From a virus, in the IMG/VR virus record IMGVR_UViG_3300025070_000019, positions 1 through 64,000 of that record: a DNA stretch of 64,000 nucleotides; one strand, written 5' to 3'. Each line of letters opens with the position of its first letter. Position 1 is the stretch's first letter. Shown one piece after another: positions 807-22,238 of the stretch. The position numbers and the translations under genes are program-made. The notes under the pieces are model-generated. The model ran no database searches and was not told the origin of the DNA. It saw only the letters and a program-made list of their open reading frames with translations.

Positions 807-1006
807 TGTATTATTTATTAGCACAAGAATATTTAAATGGAATTTTGTTAGATAATTGGATGATTAAAAATCCAATTACTGGTAAGAATCACATATATGA
901 TAATTTTTCATTAGCTTTTAGTGATAGCAAAAAGTATTGTCATGAAACTCACAATAGGGAAGTAAGGGTAATTGTAGTACATTCTAAGACAAAAATAGAA
1001 AGCTAA
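806..1006 (+). CDS. hypothetical protein
   Basis: Translationally coupled ORF. Confidence 0.6.
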   Translation: MYYLLAQEYLNGILLDNWMIKNPITGKNHIYDNFSLAFSDSKKYCHETHNREVRVIVVHSKTKIES

Positions 1007-1007
1007 T

Positions 1008-1763
1008 ATGAGTTATTTTTTTGATTATTTAAAAGATTATAATAATTGGATTACAATTTGGATTATTATGATGTTTTTGATTTCAAGTTTACTTTTTTTA
1101 TTAAAAAAAACTAATGAAATAACACTTGAAAGAACATATTTATTTACTGTTTTCTTATACATTCTTTTTGATTTGTCTCAATCAGACTATTCTGAAATGT
1201 TATATAATGATTTTGAAGGTTATGTTTGGCTATTAAGTTTCATTTGGTCACTATTTGTTTTAACTTTTATTTTAGTAATTCCTCCTACTATTTTTTTAGG
1301 TTTAATTGCATTTATTATATCTATTTTTCATTGTATTATTATATTCTTAAAAGCAGCTGTACTGGGTGTTAGCGTAGATGATGTAGAAGTAATAGGTATG
1401 TCTAATATTTATTATGAAAAGAAAAGCAAAAAAGAAACATATAATAAATTTATAAGCTTGGTAGAAGATTTAATTAAACTTGAATTAAAACACTATCCAA
1501 ATAACTCAGAAAAGATAAATGAGTCTTATAGAGATATAAAAAGAAATTATTACAATAATCCTTCTTACTATTGGAATTATATTGAAGAACGAGCAAGTTA
1601 TTTAAAATCAATACAAACAGTTTCAGATAAAGAGGTTTTATTAAAAGCAAGAAATGAGCTTTATAGGTTAAGTAAATCAAGTAAACAATCTAAAGAGTTT
1701 ATACAAGGTGTTAATAGAGTTATTAATATAATTAATATCCTTGAAAAGAAGATAAAACAGTAA
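1008..1763 (+). CDS. membrane protein (3-4 N-terminal TM helices)
   Basis: Hydrophobic N-terminal stretches. Confidence 0.65.
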   Translation: MSYFFDYLKDYNNWITIWIIMMFLISSLLFLLKKTNEITLERTYLFTVFLYILFDLSQSDYSEMLYNDFEGYVWLLSFIWSLFVLTFILVIPPTIFLGLIAFIISIFHCIIIFLKAAVLGVSVDDVEVIGMSNIYYEKKSKKETYNKFISLVEDLIKLELKHYPNNSEKINESYRDIKRNYYNNPSYYWNYIEERASYLKSIQTVSDKEVLLKARNELYRLSKSSKQSKEFIQGVNRVINIINILEKKIKQ

Positions 1764-1805
1764 TATATACTCAAAGTTATTTTAAATAAAGAGAATGTAT
1801 TTGTT

Positions 1806-2099
1806 ATGAAGTTAAAACATTTGTATATAATTCAGAGTAATTTAGAAGGAAAAATAAAGATAGGCCGCTCAATTCACCCTTATAAAAGGTTAAAACAATT
1901 GCAAACTGGTAATCCTAATAAATTGCGAATGATCCATGTTTTTGAGAACATGGGTCATCTTGAGAGTTATTTACATGATGCTTTGAGTTTATTTAGGTTA
2001 TGTGGCGAATGGTTTAGTTATAAGTGTATAGGTAGTATTCCTGTTAATTTATATGAACAAATTGAATTCGGTGCATTTGATGATTGGTGGAAAGAGTGA
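1806..2099 (+). CDS. GIY-YIG-like T5orf172/MUG113 family protein
   Basis: LYII...IKIGRS..P.KRLKQLQTGNP...E..LH...GEWF. Confidence 0.85.
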   Translation: MKLKHLYIIQSNLEGKIKIGRSIHPYKRLKQLQTGNPNKLRMIHVFENMGHLESYLHDALSLFRLCGEWFSYKCIGSIPVNLYEQIEFGAFDDWWKE

Positions 2100-2476
2100 A
2101 GTTTTTAATTTTATTAATATTTTTTTTAATTGGATGCGCAGATCAATCTGATTTGCAGGAAAAAAATGATTATACATTTTTATATTCTGTAACTAGTTGT
2201 TTTTATCCATTAAAACACTATGAAACATTTGATTATTTAATAAGTGAAGAAGACAATATTACTTACTTAAATAAATGTGAGTATGATTTAAACTATCGTG
2301 TAATTCGAGAAAATAAATATGATTTTCTTCAAGGCACTCCCAATGATGATCATTTAATAGGTTATAATAGATATGAATATAAAGATGAAAAAGTAATTGT
2401 TTCTTTTCATGATATGATTCAAGGTCATCCTAACAATGATTATTGGATTAGAGAAACAACTTATTATGTCGAATAA
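2084..2476 (+). CDS. putative lipoprotein
   Basis: Hydrophobic signal followed by LIGC lipobox. Confidence 0.55.
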   Translation: MVERVKFLILLIFFLIGCADQSDLQEKNDYTFLYSVTSCFYPLKHYETFDYLISEEDNITYLNKCEYDLNYRVIRENKYDFLQGTPNDDHLIGYNRYEYKDEKVIVSFHDMIQGHPNNDYWIRETTYYVE

Positions 2477-2681
2477 AGTAGATCATCCTAATCATTATCG
2501 TAGTGATAGTGGTATAGAAGCTATTGATGCAATTGAGGCCTGGGGCCTTAATTTTAATTTAGGCAATGTTATTAAGTATACATGTCGTGCAGGTTTGAAA
2601 GAAAATCATTTAGAAGATTTAAAAAAAGCCGCGTGGTATTTAGAAAGAGAAATAAATAATGTTGAAGGAAGTAAAAAGTAA
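2436..2681 (+). CDS. DUF3310 family phage protein (probable start near 2466)
   Basis: VDHPNHY...EAIDAI...FNLGNVIKY..RAG.K...EDLKKAAWYL. Confidence 0.85.
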   Translation: MIIGLEKQLIMSNKVDHPNHYRSDSGIEAIDAIEAWGLNFNLGNVIKYTCRAGLKENHLEDLKKAAWYLEREINNVEGSKK

Positions 2682-3066
2682 ACTATTTAAAAATTATATT
2701 TTAAAAAAACTTATATTTTTAAATCAAGAAATAAACTTAAAAACAAATGATTTGATTTTTCTTCATTACCTTGCAAAAGAAAAAAAAGAAAATAACAATT
2801 TTTTAATTGTTGAAAAATACGAAGAAGATTTAAATAATTTCTTAAATAATTATTTTAAACAATTACAATTAATAACTTTAGAAAAAAGTTCTATTTTATA
2901 TTCTTTAGTTGATCCTACTTTATTTTTAAAATTATTTAATGACTTATCTTTACCTTTTTCTAACGATTTAAAACAATTTTTAGATGAACAACTCCATCAA
3001 GCTAATTGTTGGCTTGAAGAAACGCATCAAGAACAATACCCATTTTATTGGGAGAAAGTTAATTAA
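2659..3066 (+). CDS. hypothetical protein
   Basis: ORF in operon. Confidence 0.55.
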   Translation: MLKEVKSKLFKNYILKKLIFLNQEINLKTNDLIFLHYLAKEKKENNNFLIVEKYEEDLNNFLNNYFKQLQLITLEKSSILYSLVDPTLFLKLFNDLSLPFSNDLKQFLDEQLHQANCWLEETHQEQYPFYWEKVN

Positions 3067-3068
3067 TC

Positions 3069-3353
3069 ATGGCTTTATTAGACTATATTATCTTTGTATT
3101 TGGTATTTATGGAATTGCGTGGACAATAACTCAATCAAAGTTATTGTCTAAACCAGTATCTTTTTTACAAGAAAAAAGTTCATTTTTAAACGAAATGTTA
3201 AGTTGTATAGTCTGTACAAGTTTTTGGGTTAGCATACCCTTTTGTTATCTGTATTTTGTTAGTGAGCTTTGGTTCACTAAAGTATTAATCTGTTTTTCAC
3301 AAGTATCATTTACATGGATGCTTGCATTATTTTTAGGAGACTTAGATGAATAA
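3069..3353 (+). CDS. DUF1360-like membrane protein
   Basis: TM helices with LSCIVCTSFW motif. Confidence 0.6.
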   Translation: MALLDYIIFVFGIYGIAWTITQSKLLSKPVSFLQEKSSFLNEMLSCIVCTSFWVSIPFCYLYFVSELWFTKVLICFSQVSFTWMLALFLGDLDE

Positions 3354-3786
3354 TGAATCTGTAGTTTTAAGTAATATTCATAGTAATTTTGCAAATAATT
3401 TTATTAAAAAAAAATCTGGCCCTTATAAAGAACATTTACAAGTTGTTTATATTATTAGAGGCATTTACTGCATTATGTTTAAAAAAGGCGTTTTGCGAAA
3501 CGGAAAAGAATTAAATCATACTAACAACAAAACTAAGCTTGCTTATGAATTTACCAATGCATGTCATGAATTTGGTTTAAAACATTGTATTCGTTATCAA
3601 GTTGACGGATATAATGGAATTTATCTTTATTTAAATACTTGGGACTCAAATAGAGATATTAAACAAGCAAAAGAGTATGCTTCAAAAAAACAAGCAGCTG
3701 CTGCTGTTGGTTATCCAGAAGCTGATAGCTGGGAAGAAGTTCAAGGTATGATGGAACATGATGACTATTTTAATAATAAGGATTAA
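3346..3786 (+). CDS. hypothetical protein
   Basis: ORF in operon. Confidence 0.6.
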   Translation: MNNESVVLSNIHSNFANNFIKKKSGPYKEHLQVVYIIRGIYCIMFKKGVLRNGKELNHTNNKTKLAYEFTNACHEFGLKHCIRYQVDGYNGIYLYLNTWDSNRDIKQAKEYASKKQAAAAVGYPEADSWEEVQGMMEHDDYFNNKD

Positions 3787-3788
3787 AA

Positions 3789-4856
3789 ATGTATATTAAC
3801 AATAATGTAGATGCTGTAATTGGTTTACAGTATGGTGATGAAGGTAAAGGTAAAATAACAGCTGGTGTTCTTAGTCAAGTAAATTATGATATAACAGCGC
3901 GATTTAATGGTGGACCAAATGCTGGTCATTCTATACATAAAGAGAATGGCGCACATTATGCATTACATCAATTACCATCCTCTGTCGTCTACGGACAAAG
4001 AGGACTTATTGGTCCAGGTTCTGCTGTTGACTTTCACAAACTAAATAAAGAAATTAAAGAAGTAAATGCTATAGAAGATTTAAATGTTAAAAATCTTTTG
4101 CATGTTGCTAGAAACATTTGCCCTATAAAAAATAGACATATTGAGGTTGACAGAAACTTTCATGCAGGAATGCAAGGCAGCACTTCATCTGGTATTGCTC
4201 CTGCTTATAGTGATTTTTACAACAGAACTAATGAAAGCAATAATCAGCAATACTTACCACCTCCATTAACAGTTGACAACATGTTACTTGAAGGTGCACA
4301 AGGTTTTTACCTTGATATTTATCATGGACAATACCCTTATGTAACAAGTAGTCACATATCTCCTGCATTTGCAGCAGCTAGTTTTGGATTTTCACCTAAG
4401 AAAATCCGCAACATTATTGGTGTTGCAAAATGCTATGAAACCAGATCAGGTAAAGATCCTTATTTTGATTACTTAATGGATGATATGGGGGTATTGAAAA
4501 AGCAAAAAGGTTTTAATTTTTCATTTGAAGACATTTATGAAGACATACAAAAAACAGGTCATGAATTTGGTGTAACTACAGGAAGAAAACGTCAGATACG
4601 TTTTCTTGATGTAAGTCGTTTGATTCACAGTATTAATGCTACTGGCACTACTCATGTAGTAATTAACAAATGGGACATTTTAGAAAAACTAGATGCTTGT
4701 TGTTACTTTTATAATACTAATTTATTTGTATGTGATAAAGAATCAATGTTTCCTGAAGTGGAAGCATTGATTTATGCTTATTGTAAAGATGTAAAAAAGG
4801 TATTTTATAGTGCATCTAAAACTAATGATATTGATTGGAAGTGGTTAAATGATTGA
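3789..4856 (+). CDS. purA: adenylosuccinate synthetase (short form)
   Basis: GLQYGDEGKGK, GGPNAGHS, LEGAQG, YPYVTSS, GVTTGRKR, NKWD. Confidence 0.95.
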   Translation: MYINNNVDAVIGLQYGDEGKGKITAGVLSQVNYDITARFNGGPNAGHSIHKENGAHYALHQLPSSVVYGQRGLIGPGSAVDFHKLNKEIKEVNAIEDLNVKNLLHVARNICPIKNRHIEVDRNFHAGMQGSTSSGIAPAYSDFYNRTNESNNQQYLPPPLTVDNMLLEGAQGFYLDIYHGQYPYVTSSHISPAFAAASFGFSPKKIRNIIGVAKCYETRSGKDPYFDYLMDDMGVLKKQKGFNFSFEDIYEDIQKTGHEFGVTTGRKRQIRFLDVSRLIHSINATGTTHVVINKWDILEKLDACCYFYNTNLFVCDKESMFPEVEALIYAYCKDVKKVFYSASKTNDIDWKWLND

Positions 4857-15757: not shown

Positions 15758-15959
15758 CAGAGATTCTTGTGCTCATACTAAATATTTACCTTTAGAAGAA
15801 TTGCAAGATTATAATCTCGAAGAACCATTCATTGCATGTCCTGAATGCAATGAATTAGCTGCAATTGTAAGTAATGACTTTATATTAGATGATTCAACTG
15901 AACAGTTATTCATTGCTTATTTAAAGCTATTACAAAAGGAAAAAGAAAAAAATGTTTAA
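15738..15959 (+). CDS. small putative zinc-binding protein
   Basis: C....C ... CPEC. Confidence 0.55.
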   Translation: MKIYCFNRDSCAHTKYLPLEELQDYNLEEPFIACPECNELAAIVSNDFILDDSTEQLFIAYLKLLQKEKEKNV

Positions 15960-18900
15960 ATTTATCCCTGAAGAATTTTTAAAAGATGATTATAGTGAGA
16001 ATATATCTCATTATAATTTTTACAATTTACTTAATAATTATGAAACGATACTAGATACCAATAACTTTAATTTAAAACATACCTGGTCAAAAGAAATATT
16101 AATTTCTTTAACATCAGGATTGAAAACAAGATTAAAAAATCTTAATGAGATTTTTAATAAAGAAAATAATACTTTAGAAAAAGATTTTCTTGGAAAGGAA
16201 ACAGATCTTCAAAGTTCAATTGAAGATTTCAAAGATTTCAATGAAGATAATTCTTTTTTTGAAACTCATTTCAACGATCTATTTTCTTATTTTACAGATG
16301 TTGAAAATAGAAATAATTTACTTTTACATTGTAAACCAGAAGATAAAGACACTCCCTTCTTAGCAAGAAGTAATGTCTCTATTGACGATGATTATTATGT
16401 TAATCTAAATACTGCAGCTAGAAAATCTTGCAGATACTCTCGTTTTTTTAATTTTAAATCAATTCTTAATTCTACAAAAAACTATAAACCTAAGAAGTTA
16501 TATGAAAAAGAACTTAAAAATTACATATTTCAACAATACATAAATAAAACTTTATTTTCAGTTTATGAAGATTCTCAGACAATTTTTAAAAGTTCACTAT
16601 TAGAAAATATAGCAAGAAGTCATTTAGTTGATGAAGAAACATTTGCTCAAAAATTAGATACTGAACATAATTTTTTAAATGCTATGTTTTTGAATTGGTT
16701 CAAACAAAGAGTTGTTAATACAGAATATGGTTATTTTGATTCACTTCAAGAGTATTTTGACTTCTTAGATAGTGATACTAATTGCAAAATATTTAATTAT
16801 GAAAAAAATGATCTCACTCTTACAGTGTACGCTTATCATGGAAAGCAAGAACGTATAAACAAACTTGCAAACTTATTTTCTAGATATGTTCGATTAGAGC
16901 AATATTTAATTTTGTCAAATTTATTAAGTTTTATTAGTTATTCTCAACTTACAACTTCGACTAATAAAACAGTACATTTAAATATGTATAATGAAAACTT
17001 AATTTTTTGTAAAAAAGAACATGATTGTTTAAGAAACAATCAATTGTTTTTCTCTAACTTTCATTCTAGTACTTCTTTTTCATTAAATCCAAATGCTGAT
17101 AGTCCAACTTTTCATTTTCTTCATGAAGATGAAAAGTTTAAAAGAATGAAAAAAACTAATCATTTAAATTCAGATTCTACATACAATAACTACTTAGTTG
17201 TTAAATTTAATTATCATCATATTGAAAATGATCAACATATTTACTCTAGATTTGATAAAAGTTTTTTAGATTTATTTGGCAACAAAATTATTAAAATAGA
17301 TGATGATGTTTTTTGTAATATGTCTTCTAAAGAATATTCATTTAAATTGCCAATTGATAACGATAAAGGAGGAGAAAATAAAGAATTTTTTTTAAATTCT
17401 AACACTTCTCATGTTGTAACGTCTGATACATTTAGCAATGAGCAAAAAACTTATCTTTTTAATTATTTAAAAGAAAACAGTAAAAAGAGAATAAAGGTTA
17501 TTTATTACCCTGGTTTAGATAATAAAAGTAAAAAGAAATATCCAGTCATACAAGGCACTACACTTAAAACTCTATTAACTAAAAAAGGTTTTCTTGTACC
17601 TGTTATGTTACCATTTGTTCATTTAAATGGTAACAATGAAGAACAAAAATCTTGGAATATTTGTTTATTAAACTTTAATGAAAATTCAACTTCTGGTAAA
17701 AACTTTTACAATTTTGCCTATCATATGAATTCTGATTATTTTAGATTAACTTCAAAAGATAGTGTTATCTTTATTATGAGTTTGTTTAAAAAACTTTTTA
17801 GTTATAACAATTTAATTCTCACTGACCCTAAAGAATATGAAAGATTAAAATATTCTAAATTTAATTCTATTTCACAATACAATCAAAATAATGCTGTTTT
17901 ATTTTACGATGCTTTTAAAAAAACATCTATAAGTAATCAAGATAAATTTTTGAAAGCATTTAATGATGCTAAAGGGTTGATAAATCCTACTTCTAAAAAG
18001 GGTGTTTTAGATATTTTCGCTAAAGTTAAATTAGATGAATCTATTAAAATAAATTATGATAAGGTTAAAAAAAGATACGACAAAATAAATTCAAAACTCA
18101 AAGACTTAAAAAAGAGAAAACTAAACTATAAAGAACACGTTGTTGCTTTAGAACATGATGTTGAAAGATATTTAAATGTTATAGAAGAAAAGAAACAGAA
18201 ACTTTTAAATACACAACAATCTTTAGAACAACAAGAACAAGAAATAGAAACTTTTCAAATTCAATATAATTCTATTTCTGAGTTAATGAATCAAAAATCA
18301 CAAGAATATAAAAAAAACTATGAATTAAACTTTAACAAAAAGAATTACGAACTTAATGCTTTCTTAAAAAACATTTCTAAAAACAACATTAATTTATCTT
18401 ACATTTTGTTTTCTATGAAAAATGAACCTAGGAGTTTATTCTTATATTATTCTCACCCTGATTATTTACAAGTCAAGAACTTCAATCTTGAGAGAGATTA
18501 TTATAGTTATTATGATAGTGAATATAATCATAATTATGATGACTTAATTACTGAAATGGATGTAGATAAACAATATAAGTTTGAAGGTGATAACATTTAT
18601 ATTTTGCAATCTTTATTACAAAATAATGATTATTCTATTAAAAAAGTTTGTTTTACTACTATAAAACCTTCTTTAATTAAAATTGATAATAAAGAAAAAT
18701 ATGTAGTTGGTGGTCCATACAGAATCACTGTGAGTACAGCTAAAGTACGTATTGGTCTTTTAAACTTTTCATCTGTTATGGGAGTTGATAATATTGATAC
18801 TCCTAAGAATATCAAAGCTCATCCTCATTCTAATAGTTATGGTTTACATGACATACTTTCTAGAGATGAAGCAACATTGTTAAAACCAACTAACGGTTGT

Positions 18901-19299
18901 TTAGGCGAAGCTAGTACAATGATATATCATGCTTTTAATCAAAATGATTTATCTAGAATTCTATTATCAACTATGATTTGGGTTAAATCTGCTAACTCAG
19001 CAGATGTTTGGGGTAAAACTTACAAATGGTTTCCAGAACCAAATGATGTTGATTTTGAGTTCGATGCTTTAGGTCAATTACCAACGAGTTCTGAAATCAA
19101 TTCTTTTATTGATTCAGAACTAAAAGAAATAGAAGTATCTGAAAATGAAGAACCTTCAGAAGAAGATATTTTTAGAATGGAAACTCAAGAATTAGAACAA
19201 CAAGAACAGGAGCAAATCCAAGAAACACAAAATAACAATCAACAAGATATTGAAACTTTCAATACTGATGACACTTATGTTCGTTATAGAAGAACGTAA
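15952..19299 (+). CDS. large protein with coiled coil and C-terminal prokaryotic E2 (UBC-like) domain
   Basis: GPYRITV...HPH...NGCLG...N.ADVWG near C-terminus; directly upstream of JAB and E1 genes. Confidence 0.65.
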   Translation: MFKFIPEEFLKDDYSENISHYNFYNLLNNYETILDTNNFNLKHTWSKEILISLTSGLKTRLKNLNEIFNKENNTLEKDFLGKETDLQSSIEDFKDFNEDNSFFETHFNDLFSYFTDVENRNNLLLHCKPEDKDTPFLARSNVSIDDDYYVNLNTAARKSCRYSRFFNFKSILNSTKNYKPKKLYEKELKNYIFQQYINKTLFSVYEDSQTIFKSSLLENIARSHLVDEETFAQKLDTEHNFLNAMFLNWFKQRVVNTEYGYFDSLQEYFDFLDSDTNCKIFNYEKNDLTLTVYAYHGKQERINKLANLFSRYVRLEQYLILSNLLSFISYSQLTTSTNKTVHLNMYNENLIFCKKEHDCLRNNQLFFSNFHSSTSFSLNPNADSPTFHFLHEDEKFKRMKKTNHLNSDSTYNNYLVVKFNYHHIENDQHIYSRFDKSFLDLFGNKIIKIDDDVFCNMSSKEYSFKLPIDNDKGGENKEFFLNSNTSHVVTSDTFSNEQKTYLFNYLKENSKKRIKVIYYPGLDNKSKKKYPVIQGTTLKTLLTKKGFLVPVMLPFVHLNGNNEEQKSWNICLLNFNENSTSGKNFYNFAYHMNSDYFRLTSKDSVIFIMSLFKKLFSYNNLILTDPKEYERLKYSKFNSISQYNQNNAVLFYDAFKKTSISNQDKFLKAFNDAKGLINPTSKKGVLDIFAKVKLDESIKINYDKVKKRYDKINSKLKDLKKRKLNYKEHVVALEHDVERYLNVIEEKKQKLLNTQQSLEQQEQEIETFQIQYNSISELMNQKSQEYKKNYELNFNKKNYELNAFLKNISKNNINLSYILFSMKNEPRSLFLYYSHPDYLQVKNFNLERDYYSYYDSEYNHNYDDLITEMDVDKQYKFEGDNIYILQSLLQNNDYSIKKVCFTTIKPSLIKIDNKEKYVVGGPYRITVSTAKVRIGLLNFSSVMGVDNIDTPKNIKAHPHSNSYGLHDILSRDEATLLKPTNGCLGEASTMIYHAFNQNDLSRILLSTMIWVKSANSADVWGKTYKWFPEPNDVDFEFDALGQLPTSSEINSFIDSELKEIEVSENEEPSEEDIFRMETQELEQQEQEQIQETQNNNQQDIETFNTDDTYVRYRRT

Positions 19300-19311: not shown

Positions 19312-20403
19312 ATGCAATCTATTACAGAATTAAATATTTTAAACAAAAAACCTACCCTTTATATTTCATATGAAGGGTTAGAAGCAATTAAACACATTGT
19401 CTCTATTGCGCCACAAGAAGCACAATGGTTTCATACTATTGAAGTTGAAAACGAAAACACTTTAGTTTTATCAGATCGTATTTACATACCAGAACAAAAT
19501 ACATCTGCTGCTCAAGTTGATTCTACATCTGAAATGTTAATAAATTTTTATAAAGAATTATCTAAAGAATTTAAAACGGAAGAAGTAAATCACATATTAC
19601 AAAATATGGGATGTTGGTGTCATTCACATCATAACATGGGTGTAAGTCCATCAGGACAAGACGTAAAACAATTCACTGAATTTGTTAAAAGTTCTATTGA
19701 ACAAAATCAAAACACTTGGCAAATCATGTTGATCTTTAATAAAAAAGATCAATTTTATTGTCGAGCATATGATCCTAAAACAGGAATTATTTACGAAGGT
19801 TTAGATTTAGAAATTTATCATACTTATGATTTCGATTATATTGACAAAGCAGCTAAAACTAAATTTAAGAAACCTAAACCTAAATTTAATAGCTATGGAT
19901 TTAAATCTAAAAAGAATCAAACTAAAACTACTTACACTAGCCCTAATTGGTTATATCAATCTTCACAAGAATCATTGTTTCCAGCTACTGTTGATAGCAA
20001 TGGTTATGTGTATCCTTCGAAGATCAATGATTATGCAAATGAAGGTTATTATGATGAGTTAGCAGAACATATTTTAAGTGGGTTTAATCAAAAAACTATT
20101 AAGTTTAATCAAAACAATTTAGATGAATTAGTTTTTCAAATGCAAAATCATTTAGATGATAGAGAATTTTGTTTATTTAGCTATATGTTAGCTAATAATA
20201 AAAAAAGTCTAATTAGATCTTGGTCTTTAAATGAAGGTGATTTCAATATTTTACTTTTACAAGATGCTGAAGATAAATTAAGAACTTTTATGAAAAGCAA
20301 AACCAGAAGTAAAAGATCTCTTATCAGTAAAATGTCTACATTTTTAGACATTTTAGATTTAAAAAATGATGAAGCAATTAAAATAATAAAGGAGTTAAAT
20401 TAA
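19312..20403 (+). CDS. JAB/MPN+ (JAMM) metalloprotease
   Basis: N-terminal Glu (PQEAQW), WCHSHHNMGVSPSGQD = HxH-x7-S-xx-D. Confidence 0.88.
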   Translation: MQSITELNILNKKPTLYISYEGLEAIKHIVSIAPQEAQWFHTIEVENENTLVLSDRIYIPEQNTSAAQVDSTSEMLINFYKELSKEFKTEEVNHILQNMGCWCHSHHNMGVSPSGQDVKQFTEFVKSSIEQNQNTWQIMLIFNKKDQFYCRAYDPKTGIIYEGLDLEIYHTYDFDYIDKAAKTKFKKPKPKFNSYGFKSKKNQTKTTYTSPNWLYQSSQESLFPATVDSNGYVYPSKINDYANEGYYDELAEHILSGFNQKTIKFNQNNLDELVFQMQNHLDDREFCLFSYMLANNKKSLIRSWSLNEGDFNILLLQDAEDKLRTFMKSKTRSKRSLISKMSTFLDILDLKNDEAIKIIKELN

Positions 20404-21321: not shown

Positions 21322-21350
21322 AAAAGGGAGGCATTTAGCCTCCTTTTTTA
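21322..21350 (+). terminator. intrinsic terminator
   Basis: GGAGGC-attta-GCCTCC followed by T tract, preceded by A tract. Confidence 0.8.
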
Positions 21351-21365
21351 TTTTAAGGAGACTAA

Positions 21366-21656
21366 ATGTACATTTACCGTTTAATGCAAGGCGATACTAC
21401 TAAAGACGCTTTTTTAAAAATGTTAGCTAAAGAAAAAGAATGGTCAGAATATACTAATGAACCATCTTTATTTATTAAATATAAACGTTATCAAGTTTTA
21501 GATACTAATAAACATTTTGATAAAATGGAGGATGAAAATGTAATTCATAAATATTTAAAAGAAAAAAATTTATCTAAAAACTGCTGTGGAGTATTTGTAC
21601 TACATGGCAACCAATTTCAATTCCTATGTCCTGATGACATTGAATACGAATATTAA
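21366..21656 (+). CDS. hypothetical protein
   Basis: AAGGAG RBS. Confidence 0.7.
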   Translation: MYIYRLMQGDTTKDAFLKMLAKEKEWSEYTNEPSLFIKYKRYQVLDTNKHFDKMEDENVIHKYLKEKNLSKNCCGVFVLHGNQFQFLCPDDIEYEY

Positions 21657-21731
21657 CTTCGCTTAATTTTAAGCAAAATTTATTAAATAAACTGTATTTA
21701 CATACAAAAACAAAAAGAAGGAAAAAATCCT

Positions 21732-22238
21732 ATGGATATCACTCTTATCGTAATTCCTGGTCCTGGTGTTCGCACTGTAACTCTTAACGAAAATACAACT
21801 GTAGAGCAACTTGTTACGCAAGAAAATTTACATGGTCGTGACATCATTATTGATGGTGTTGGTGTTTCTCCTGCTAACTATCAAACAACTAACATTACTG
21901 CTAATAGCGAAGTATTTGCTACTGGTAGTGTGAAAGGGAATATGTCTAATTTAACTTTAATCGTAATTCCTGGTCCTGGTGTTCGCACTCTTAGTATCAC
22001 TAATAGTATGACTGTAGAACAACTTATTACGCAAGAAAATTTACATGGTCGTGATATTATTATTGACGGTGTTGGTATCTCACCAACTAATTATCAAACA
22101 ACTACATTAACTAGTGGTAGCGAAGTATTTGCTACTGGTAGTGTAAAAGGGAATGGTGATCGTCCTGCAAACGGTCCATCACAAACAGGTCGTCCTAGTG
22201 GTGGTGGACGCGGTAACAATCCACCTCGTGGAAAGTAA
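21732..22238 (+). CDS. tandem ubiquitin-like (beta-grasp) precursor: 2 x ~70 aa units + 27 aa tail
   Basis: Units 21732-21941 and 21942-22154 both end SEVFATGSVKGN; beta-beta-alpha-beta-beta pattern; near E1/JAB/E2. Confidence 0.8.
   Translation: MDITLIVIPGPGVRTVTLNENTTVEQLVTQENLHGRDIIIDGVGVSPANYQTTNITANSEVFATGSVKGNMSNLTLIVIPGPGVRTLSITNSMTVEQLITQENLHGRDIIIDGVGISPTNYQTTTLTSGSEVFATGSVKGNGDRPANGPSQTGRPSGGGRGNNPPRGK

Follow-up and report, generated by a model that had tools for sequence, protein, structure and literature searches.

The 64,000-nucleotide stretch of viral DNA analyzed here (the window, which belongs to a 96.6-kb IMG/VR record of an uncultured marine phage, with an estimated completeness of 59%) carries a gene whose product consists of two ubiquitin-like (Ubl) units joined head to tail and followed by a short basic tail (Table 1). 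Translation confirmed the composition given in a preliminary description of the locus, with units of 70 and 71 amino acids and a Gly/Pro/Arg tail of 27; all the sequence strings quoted there as common to the units were found in both, and the second unit begins with its own Met (Met71). The units are identical at 54 of 70 positions (77%) in the protein and at 82% in the DNA. Their codons differ by 9 synonymous changes, of the kind already reported for the two copies, and by 16 non-synonymous ones, and the likeness of the copies is far beyond chance. Both units end in EVFATGSVKGN. Each contains a single Lys (K68 and K139), located beside the terminal Gly as had been pointed out, and the sole further Lys of the protein is the last residue of the tail. 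The Lys content of the gene is 1.8%, against 6.6-12.9% in neighbouring genes, and its GC content is 39%, against 29% for the window.

An identical region was present on contigs of three marine runs, which are possibly the source of the window itself. Among the public runs listed as carrying the region, none was of RNA. In an independent seawater run from 2025, one contig spans the junction between units 1 and 2 and carries 11 substitutions within the gene; hence, the head-to-tail junction is not an assembly artefact. Nine of these 11 substitutions are synonymous, two of these within SVKGN codons. At the sequence level, then, the repeat is real and purifying selection acts on the precursor gene. 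A promoter scan gave no signal above shuffled controls, and a single terminator-like site was detected on the minus strand at 21327-21343, above the shuffled mean of 0.2.

Table 1. Features of the poly-Ubl precursor gene and of the genes of its module (window coordinates)
Feature	Coordinates	Strand	Basis
Poly-Ubl precursor gene, 168 amino acids plus stop, two units and tail	21732..22238	+	Translation
Likely ribosome-binding site AAGGA, 9 nt before the ATG	21718..21722	+	Presumed from the sequence
Ubl unit 1, residues 1-70, beta-grasp	21732..21941	+	AlphaFold2 and Foldseek
Unit 1 internal C-terminal motif SVKGN	21927..21941	+	Predicted processing site, between G69 and N70 or after N70
Ubl unit 2, residues 71-141, own Met (Met71)	21942..22154	+	Translation, codon comparison, model
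Unit 2 C-terminal motif SVKGN	22140..22154	+	Predicted processing site, between G140 and N141 or after N141
Basic Gly/Pro/Arg tail GDRPANGPSQTGRPSGGGRGNNPPRGK, 27 amino acids, residues 142-168	22155..22235	+	Predicted disordered; conserved core
JAB/JAMM metalloprotease, 363 amino acids, N-terminal JAB domain and unassigned C-terminal half	19312..20403	+	PADLOC JAB models, E 4e-5
JAMM zinc-site motif HSHHNMGVSPSGQD	19621..19662	+	Motif reading, orthologue alignment
Minimal ThiF/MoeB-type E1 adenylating enzyme, 229 amino acids	20403..21092	+	Pfam ThiF 3.3e-19
1115-residue protein, always directly upstream of JAB	15952..19299	+	Synteny, alignment
Conserved C-terminal domain of the 1115-residue protein, HPH...CLGE...SANSxDxWG	18604..19086	+	Alignment; model
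Hc1 histone-H1-like gene, 62 amino acids	21107..21295	+	Pfam Hc1 8.4e-15; synteny

The AlphaFold2 model, obtained with a 66-sequence alignment, comprises two beta-grasp domains (residues 2-64 and 73-135) in which the topology strand-strand-helix-strand-strand-strand occurs twice. The predicted local distance difference test (pLDDT) averages 82-96 in most 10-residue blocks of the domains (residues 1-60 in unit 1) and falls below 50 over residues 138-164, where the tail is predicted to be disordered. The predicted template modelling score (pTM) is only 0.56, which argues for two domains without fixed mutual packing. The best Foldseek matches in the PDB were linear di- and tetra-ubiquitin, ISG15, polyubiquitin and FAT10 (E 2e-7 to 4e-5, probability 1.0), at an identity of 10-17% in the fold alignments to ubiquitin-type structures; a profile search of PDB sequences did not find ubiquitin. 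The window protein lies just under the Pfam cut-offs (OTU1_UBXL, 21 bits against 22.7). Its relative P0016 passes those of SAMP2 (33.5 against 27) and OTU1_UBXL (36.4 against 22.7), and another relative, P0032, passes that of ThiS (25.3 against 22.5). The modelled beta-grasp fold, the Foldseek matches and the relatives above Pfam Ubl cut-offs agree with the earlier assignment of the units as Ubls. A further match was given by long proteins of 500-2200 amino acids (P0128, P0133, P0135, P0200 and others), several with signal-peptide-like N-termini, that contain 3-13 divergent InlB B-repeat domains (PF18998); their alignment with the Ubl unit covers residues ~11-66, with 30-34% identity. These arrays were set aside as relatives of the unit, the matches being weak and without the KG[NA] end; what they display is remote beta-grasp kinship.

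A search of 5.8 billion proteins, in which homologues were counted at E ≤ 0.01, gave 175 homologues of the precursor. Their length classes comprise 95-99 amino acids (one unit with the same basic tail as in the window), 142-146 (two units), 168 (two units and tail), 209-237 (three units) and 239 (two units and a 94-residue domain), and the number of units per gene ranges from 1 to 4. In related loci, standalone genes of 71 amino acids, ending exactly in ...SVKGN-stop, are found besides genes of two, three and four units, giving 2-5 units per genome in the combinations 1+3, 1+2, 2+1, 1+4, 1+1 and 1+1+1. What follows KGN varies as well, and may be nothing or 1-4 residues, the basic tail, a DSSVPANFTM tail, or the 94-residue domain. 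This variation in unit number, with standalone genes and varied cargo, fits the polyubiquitin or ubiquitin-fusion style of architecture that had been proposed for the gene. The motif itself is nearly constant: SVKGN is present in 230 of 233 full units of close relatives, and all 233 have Asn behind KG; the position beyond this Asn is variable and never Pro. Lys outside the motif amounts to 10 of 15,406 residues in these units (0.06%). The K-G pair is invariant both in the 233 close units and in 51 distant homologues, so that the terminal Gly, whose conservation was decisive for the preliminary description, is retained throughout. The Gly codon of KGN is a mixture of GGC, GGT, GGA and GGG, without constraint at the nucleotide level, and an internal Shine-Dalgarno or slippery site at this position was therefore dropped as a candidate. 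Neither the Ubl gene nor a distant homologue had a DNA or protein match in the GenBank phage collection.

The 94-residue globular cargo domain (GAE.F...GFVFYGWAAC) is fused to a four-unit array in locus L008 (7989-9140) and to a two-unit array in locus L009 (8010-8729). No Pfam or PDB relative of the domain was found, and standalone viral look-alikes of 89-109 amino acids in the Atlas are a lead only. A further protein, P0144 (212 amino acids), begins with a major-capsid-like fragment (Pfam Phage_capsid_3) that leads directly into part of a Ubl unit; this part ends in KGN and is identical to the single unit of L009. The protein may be a genuine fusion of capsid and Ubl or a chimera produced in assembly.

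Identity among units ranges from 52 to 87%, and the internal SVKGN motifs are as invariant as the terminal ones. Units within one protein share a mean identity of 72%, against 61-65% for units of different proteins, which fits repeated duplication or gene conversion. Close relatives of the window protein (92-94% identical) consist of two units ending in KGNSQN and have no tail, and a separate protein consists of a single unit, resembling unit 1 of the window, followed by the tail. Given these two forms, the arrangement in the window may stem from recombination between units.

Taken together with the genes that surround it, the gene probably encodes a precursor that is cut by the neighbouring JAB into Ubl monomers, with the cut between Gly and Asn of each motif, as in the preliminary description, favoured; to this reading, drawn from sequence, structural model and analogy, a probability of about 0.6 is given. 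It is supported by the internal units keeping the full SVKGN as invariantly as the terminal ones, by the existence of the same unit as a separate gene in sister phages, and by an intact JAMM protease always being present while unrelated cargos attach at the same point. Pre-processing of bacterial Ubls by JAB has been demonstrated in Type II Bil (PMC10557695), which supports it further. Alternatively, the protein might act uncleaved, as a tandem-Ubl modifier of the ISG15, FAT10 or Bil/Bub Ubl2 and Ubl3 type, the end of the last unit being used after removal of the tail and the internal SVKGN being a relic of duplication. Intact tandem beta-grasp Ubls are indeed known in bacteria and animals, and ISG15 and FAT10 are among the fold matches. 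However, uncleaved tandem Ubls would not be expected to keep an internal SVKGN, and here the internal motifs have stayed invariant while the units diverged; moreover, sister phages have these units as genes of their own, in every combination, and the confidently modelled domains show no fixed interdomain packing. An uncleaved modifier is thus improbable.

The protease invoked in the preliminary description has a complete JAMM signature, formed by E36, H104, S105, H106, S114 and D117 (E...HxHx7Sx2D), and these residues are invariant in 10 orthologues. The E1 consists of one ThiF domain (residues 23-217), with TcdA, PaaA, MoeB and UBA5 as PDB relatives and MccB among the weak ones; GxGxxG, D50, D52, K73, D115, R120 and Cys177 are invariant, and are conserved even in a crAss-like homologue. 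In the mechanism proposed, the JAMM/JAB enzyme would cut each SVKG-N junction, with Asn as the P1' or cap residue, and would release two monomers ending in ...VKG and a 28-residue peptide, NGDRPANGPSQTGRPSGGGRGNNPPRGK. The exposed Gly would be adenylated by the ThiF-type E1, which would probably take the Ubl onto Cys177, and the Ubl would then be passed to Lys of phage or host proteins, possibly via the invariant Cys of the HPH...CLGE domain encoded upstream. In a nearly Lys-free Ubl, self-conjugation and chain formation would be prevented; the Lys depletion of the tag argues for Lys as the acceptor and for selection against self-modification.

A transfer role for the HPH...CLGE domain is suggested mainly by its position, since its location before the JAB and E1 genes matches the E2-DUB-E1 order of Bil. 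In the 1115-residue protein to which it belongs, conservation is confined to the C-terminal ~160 residues. The domain model has a pLDDT of 85, and its invariant Cys, Glu and two His are ordered differently from those of CEHH. No match was found in Pfam (with 10 members), in PDB profiles, or with Foldseek in the PDB at E ≤ 0.001. With VIA-align the best Z was 3.4, and the sole full-length alignment, with E2S, had a Z of 2.9 and a root-mean-square deviation of 5.4 over 104 residues; the Atlas pointed weakly to a cluster with Prok-E2_D in 11% of its members. The domain is hence considered a candidate E2-like or transfer domain, a role neither accepted nor rejected, and its structure may be either that of a strongly diverged E2 or a new fold.

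The position of the cut depends on how the residue after Gly is interpreted. Loci L016 and L018 represent a sister lineage that shares the synteny, and there the standalone Ubl has the C-terminus ...GGAKGA; of 51 distant single-domain homologues, 27 carry N and 24 carry A directly behind KG. Such alternation of N and A would be that of the small residue expected at a P1' position. In Type II Bil of Ensifer aridi, the JAB BilC cuts BilA between Gly97 and the single C-terminal Ala98, and full-length BilA shows no reactivity (PMC10557695). A cut between Gly and Asn is favoured because orthologous systems end in KGA and the Bil JAB removes a single Ala after Gly. The N/A interchange also excludes Asn-specific chemistry: MccB-like succinimide formation or nucleotidylation, Pup-like deamidation and Asn-cyclisation self-cleavage were rejected, as orthologues carry Ala at that place. 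Maturation of the MccB/PaaA type, in which a ribosomally synthesised and post-translationally modified peptide has an obligatory C-terminal Asn, was rejected on the same ground, orthologous systems ending in Ala, and the E1 has no N-terminal peptide clamp of the MccB/PaaA type: its adenylation domain starts at about residue 20, whereas the matches to MccB and PaaA start only at about residue 115-125 of their chains.

Several observations weigh against the proposed reading. None of the ~110 close terminal units and none of the 51 distant homologues ends in KG; 40 of the 51 stop exactly at KG[NA], one residue past Gly, and 23 close proteins end exactly at KGN. The boundary of conservation lies after Asn or Ala and not after Gly, and internal units counted from after Asn equal first units counted from Met in N-terminal length. 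The E1, with only 229 residues, is without the extra domains of conjugating E1s, and the upstream HPH...CLGE domain, for which an E2 identity is that of a candidate only, has no Pfam or PDB relative. The repeat, the fold, the intact catalytic motifs, the synteny, the varying unit number, the standalone units and the range of cargos are shown by the data; cleavage, its exact site, conjugation, its targets and the role of the tail are inferred.

Most of these observations would be accommodated by the same logic of precursor and conjugation if the protease cut after Asn, leaving mature forms ending in ...VKGN (or ...KGA) whose C-terminal Asn or Ala would be activated by the E1; the standalone genes ending in KGN would then need no processing. 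The constancy of Asn in close units, the abrupt fall of conservation beyond it to a variable residue that is never Pro, the ends at KGN and KG[NA] but never at KG, and the equal N-terminal lengths of internal and first units all suit this course, and K-G-[N/A] aligns with the R-G-G of ubiquitin. E1-fold enzymes acting on a C-terminal Asn exist, MccB, which is among the weak PDB relatives of the E1, being one. To our knowledge, though, all characterised conjugated beta-grasp Ubls use a C-terminal Gly, and an interchange of N and A is easier to accept in a small P1' residue than in an activated one. The Bil precedent is likewise one of cap removal with an unreactive uncut form (PMC10557695). A cut after Asn is thus regarded as unlikely, though by no means negligible.

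A different use of a JAB-uncapped Ubl is that of a sulfur carrier of the ThiS, MoaD, CysO or QbsE type, for which the E1 would make a thiocarboxylate serving thiolation of a cofactor, a tRNA or a DNA base. JAMM uncapping of sulfur carriers is known from QbsD/QbsE and Mec+/CysO, the E1 is of the minimal MoeB/ThiF/TcdA type, some relatives of the Ubl are automatically named 'sulfur carrier protein ThiS', and one relative passes the Pfam ThiS cut-off as mentioned above. Nevertheless, genes for a sulfurtransferase, rhodanese, ThiG/MoaE or cysteine desulfurase are absent from the module, and a sulfur carrier would leave the Lys depletion, the fused units and the fusion to unrelated cargo proteins unexplained, so that this function is very improbable.

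The basic tail has a core, N[GA]PS[QT]TG[RN][PK]SGGGRGNN.P[RK].K, that is conserved across 28 proteins, in which the linker before it varies from 2 to 5 residues. Without exception the tail is joined to a Ubl unit, and no locus has more than one copy (present in four related loci and the window). The tail had been thought either a safety cap or a co-delivered functional peptide. The conservation of its core argues for a selected peptide and not a mere cap; a capping role is unlikely to be the whole story. The proposed search for the tail as a standalone small open reading frame found neither such a frame nor a second copy in the 96.6-kb record or in the related loci, and a PDB search with the peptide gave no match. 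As a speculation, the RGG-like composition and the neighbouring histone-H1-like gene suggest that the tail binds nucleic acid.

An alignment query of IMG/VR recovered 12 loci, a single-protein query having given none. Two of them (L003 and L005) repeat L002 and L006 and one (L013) contains the Ubl gene only; with these three left out, the module is present in 9 distinct IMG/VR loci and in 2 metagenome loci, 11 in all. The syntenic order is large protein, JAB, E1, (Hc1-like), Ubl gene(s), PhoH and Whirly, and the Ubl part is variable within a fixed frame of flanking genes. In this phage record, the module sits among genes for RNR, DnaE, primase-helicase, PhoH and Whirly. A query with the KGA subgroup found no relative in 185,579 prokaryote species genomes or in IMG/VR, its only matches being metagenome contigs. 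Relatives of the E1 in crAss-like, Flavobacterium and Xanthomonas phages are a lead only.

The organisation of the gene resembles that of polyubiquitin genes (UBI4/UBB/UBC type) and ubiquitin-ribosomal fusions, which likewise consist of head-to-tail beta-grasp units without spacers, each with its own C-terminal processing motif, vary in unit number, end in a cap residue or in an unrelated basic passenger, and have a dedicated peptidase encoded by the same genome. The phage unit differs in having no sequence homology to ubiquitin and in ending in K-G-N instead of R-G-G or Gly-Gly. Its copies within one gene differ from each other, sharing 77% identity, whereas ubiquitin repeats are identical in protein; furthermore, the phage modifier is almost Lys-free and phage-encoded, and its cleavage is deduced here. 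With Bil (BilABCD) the module shares a cluster of Ubl, JAB and E1 genes, an (X)-JAB-E1 order that matches E2-DUB-E1 (PMC10557695), and a single small residue after the reactive Gly, which in Bil is removed by JAB; some Bil Ubls are also multi-beta-grasp proteins. In contrast, the Bil E1 is large, with an inactive and an active adenylation domain and a mobile Cys domain, while the phage E1 is a single domain of 229 residues (PMC10557695), and the Bil E2 (CEHH) has a recognisable E2 fold, whereas the upstream domain of the phage has no detectable relative. Bil multi-domain Ubls have not been described as arrays of cleavable units, and Bil is a host defence, the phage module lying among replication genes and not in a bacterial defence island.

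The archaeal SAMP/UbaA/HvJAMM1 system also combines a small ThiS/MoaD-like modifier, a MoeB-type E1 and a JAMM protease, needs no E2 for conjugation, and has in SAMP2 a Pfam family that relatives of the phage Ubl reach. SAMPs, however, end in Gly-Gly, are single-domain proteins without cap or cargo, double as sulfur carriers and are cellular. Finally, in the lambda-type pair of tail protein I (a Ubl) and the JAB-containing K, a phage beta-grasp protein has a conserved Gly followed by a further C-terminal segment, and the phage JAB is predicted to release the Ubl (PMC1779556). Those genes lie in a tail cluster without an E1, while the present ones include an E1 and a repeated Ubl and have replication and nucleotide-metabolism neighbours. 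Iyer et al. described such phage Ubl-JAB pairs in lambda-type tail clusters, as well as bacterial three-domain Ubls (PMC1779556). Arrays with a processing site per unit, or a phage module with an E1, are found neither there nor in Chambers et al. or Gong et al., and a full-text literature search of incomplete coverage gave no paper on a phage-encoded E1-JAB-poly-Ubl system. The phage module would appear to be a prokaryotic Ubl system with a eukaryotic precursor architecture.

Up to now, bacterial Ubl conjugation has been presented as an anti-phage defence of the host, as in Bil and type II CBASS, or as cellular, as in SAMP and Pup. In the present case all of the toolkit is on the phage side, among early replication genes, which suggests that phages tag proteins themselves, for countering defences or for controlling their own replication or assembly. 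In its widest form, the proposal is that a widespread group of large marine phages, and possibly crAss-like phages too, possess a full Ubl tagging system, in which arrays and passenger fusions would be cut by a dedicated JAMM protease, as in eukaryotes, and a minimal E1 together with a novel Cys/His transfer domain would link the Lys-free tag to proteins of host or phage in infection; this is put forward tentatively, at slightly short of even odds. Head-to-tail arrays of tags and passenger fusions had been regarded as a hallmark of eukaryotic ubiquitin genes, and the phage system, if true, would either have arrived at that organisation independently, in a virus of bacteria, or share an ancient kinship with it. 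The phage arrays would offer a simple and testable system for why such organisation evolves, be it for stoichiometric co-production, as an inactive pro-form, or because recombination of units lets dosage change rapidly. Moreover, as the single Lys adjoins the reactive end, trypsin would leave +57 Da (Gly) or +171 Da (Gly-Asn) on the target Lys, a clean mass-spectrometric signature.

An analogous module is present in the uncultured crAss-like phage cr85_1 (L014, MT774390.1) at 933-4648. A ThiF gene, annotated as 'thiamine biosynthesis protein', is preceded there by a 366-residue JAMM protein (HSHx7SxxD), and a 371-residue protein with an HxH...CLG segment lies before the JAMM and ThiF genes. 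Two genes further up, a 218-residue protein has a Ubl-like N-terminus that ends in ...IKSGA and is followed by a further domain. In BFVD, a weak link was found between the HPH...CLGE domain of the window and a 373-residue protein of a crAss-like virus. As a lead only, crAss-like phages may carry a related tagging system.

Two further genes accompany the Ubl genes. The Hc1-like gene, of a family known from Chlamydia and Bacteroidota, lies between the E1 and Ubl genes in all close loci and is absent from the KGA-type loci L016 and L018; its product could be a partner, a target or just a neighbour of the system. Between it and the precursor gene, 21366-21656 (+) encodes a 96-residue protein with a CC...C motif and no family match, which also lies beside Ubl genes in L005/L006, L007, L011 and L012. 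Farther upstream in the window, the 355-residue protein encoded at 3789-4856 (+) matches phrog_1211, '2-aminooxy adenylosuccinate synthetase' (PurZ-type), with an E of 3.8e-56, and the phage may hence make a modified purine for its DNA.

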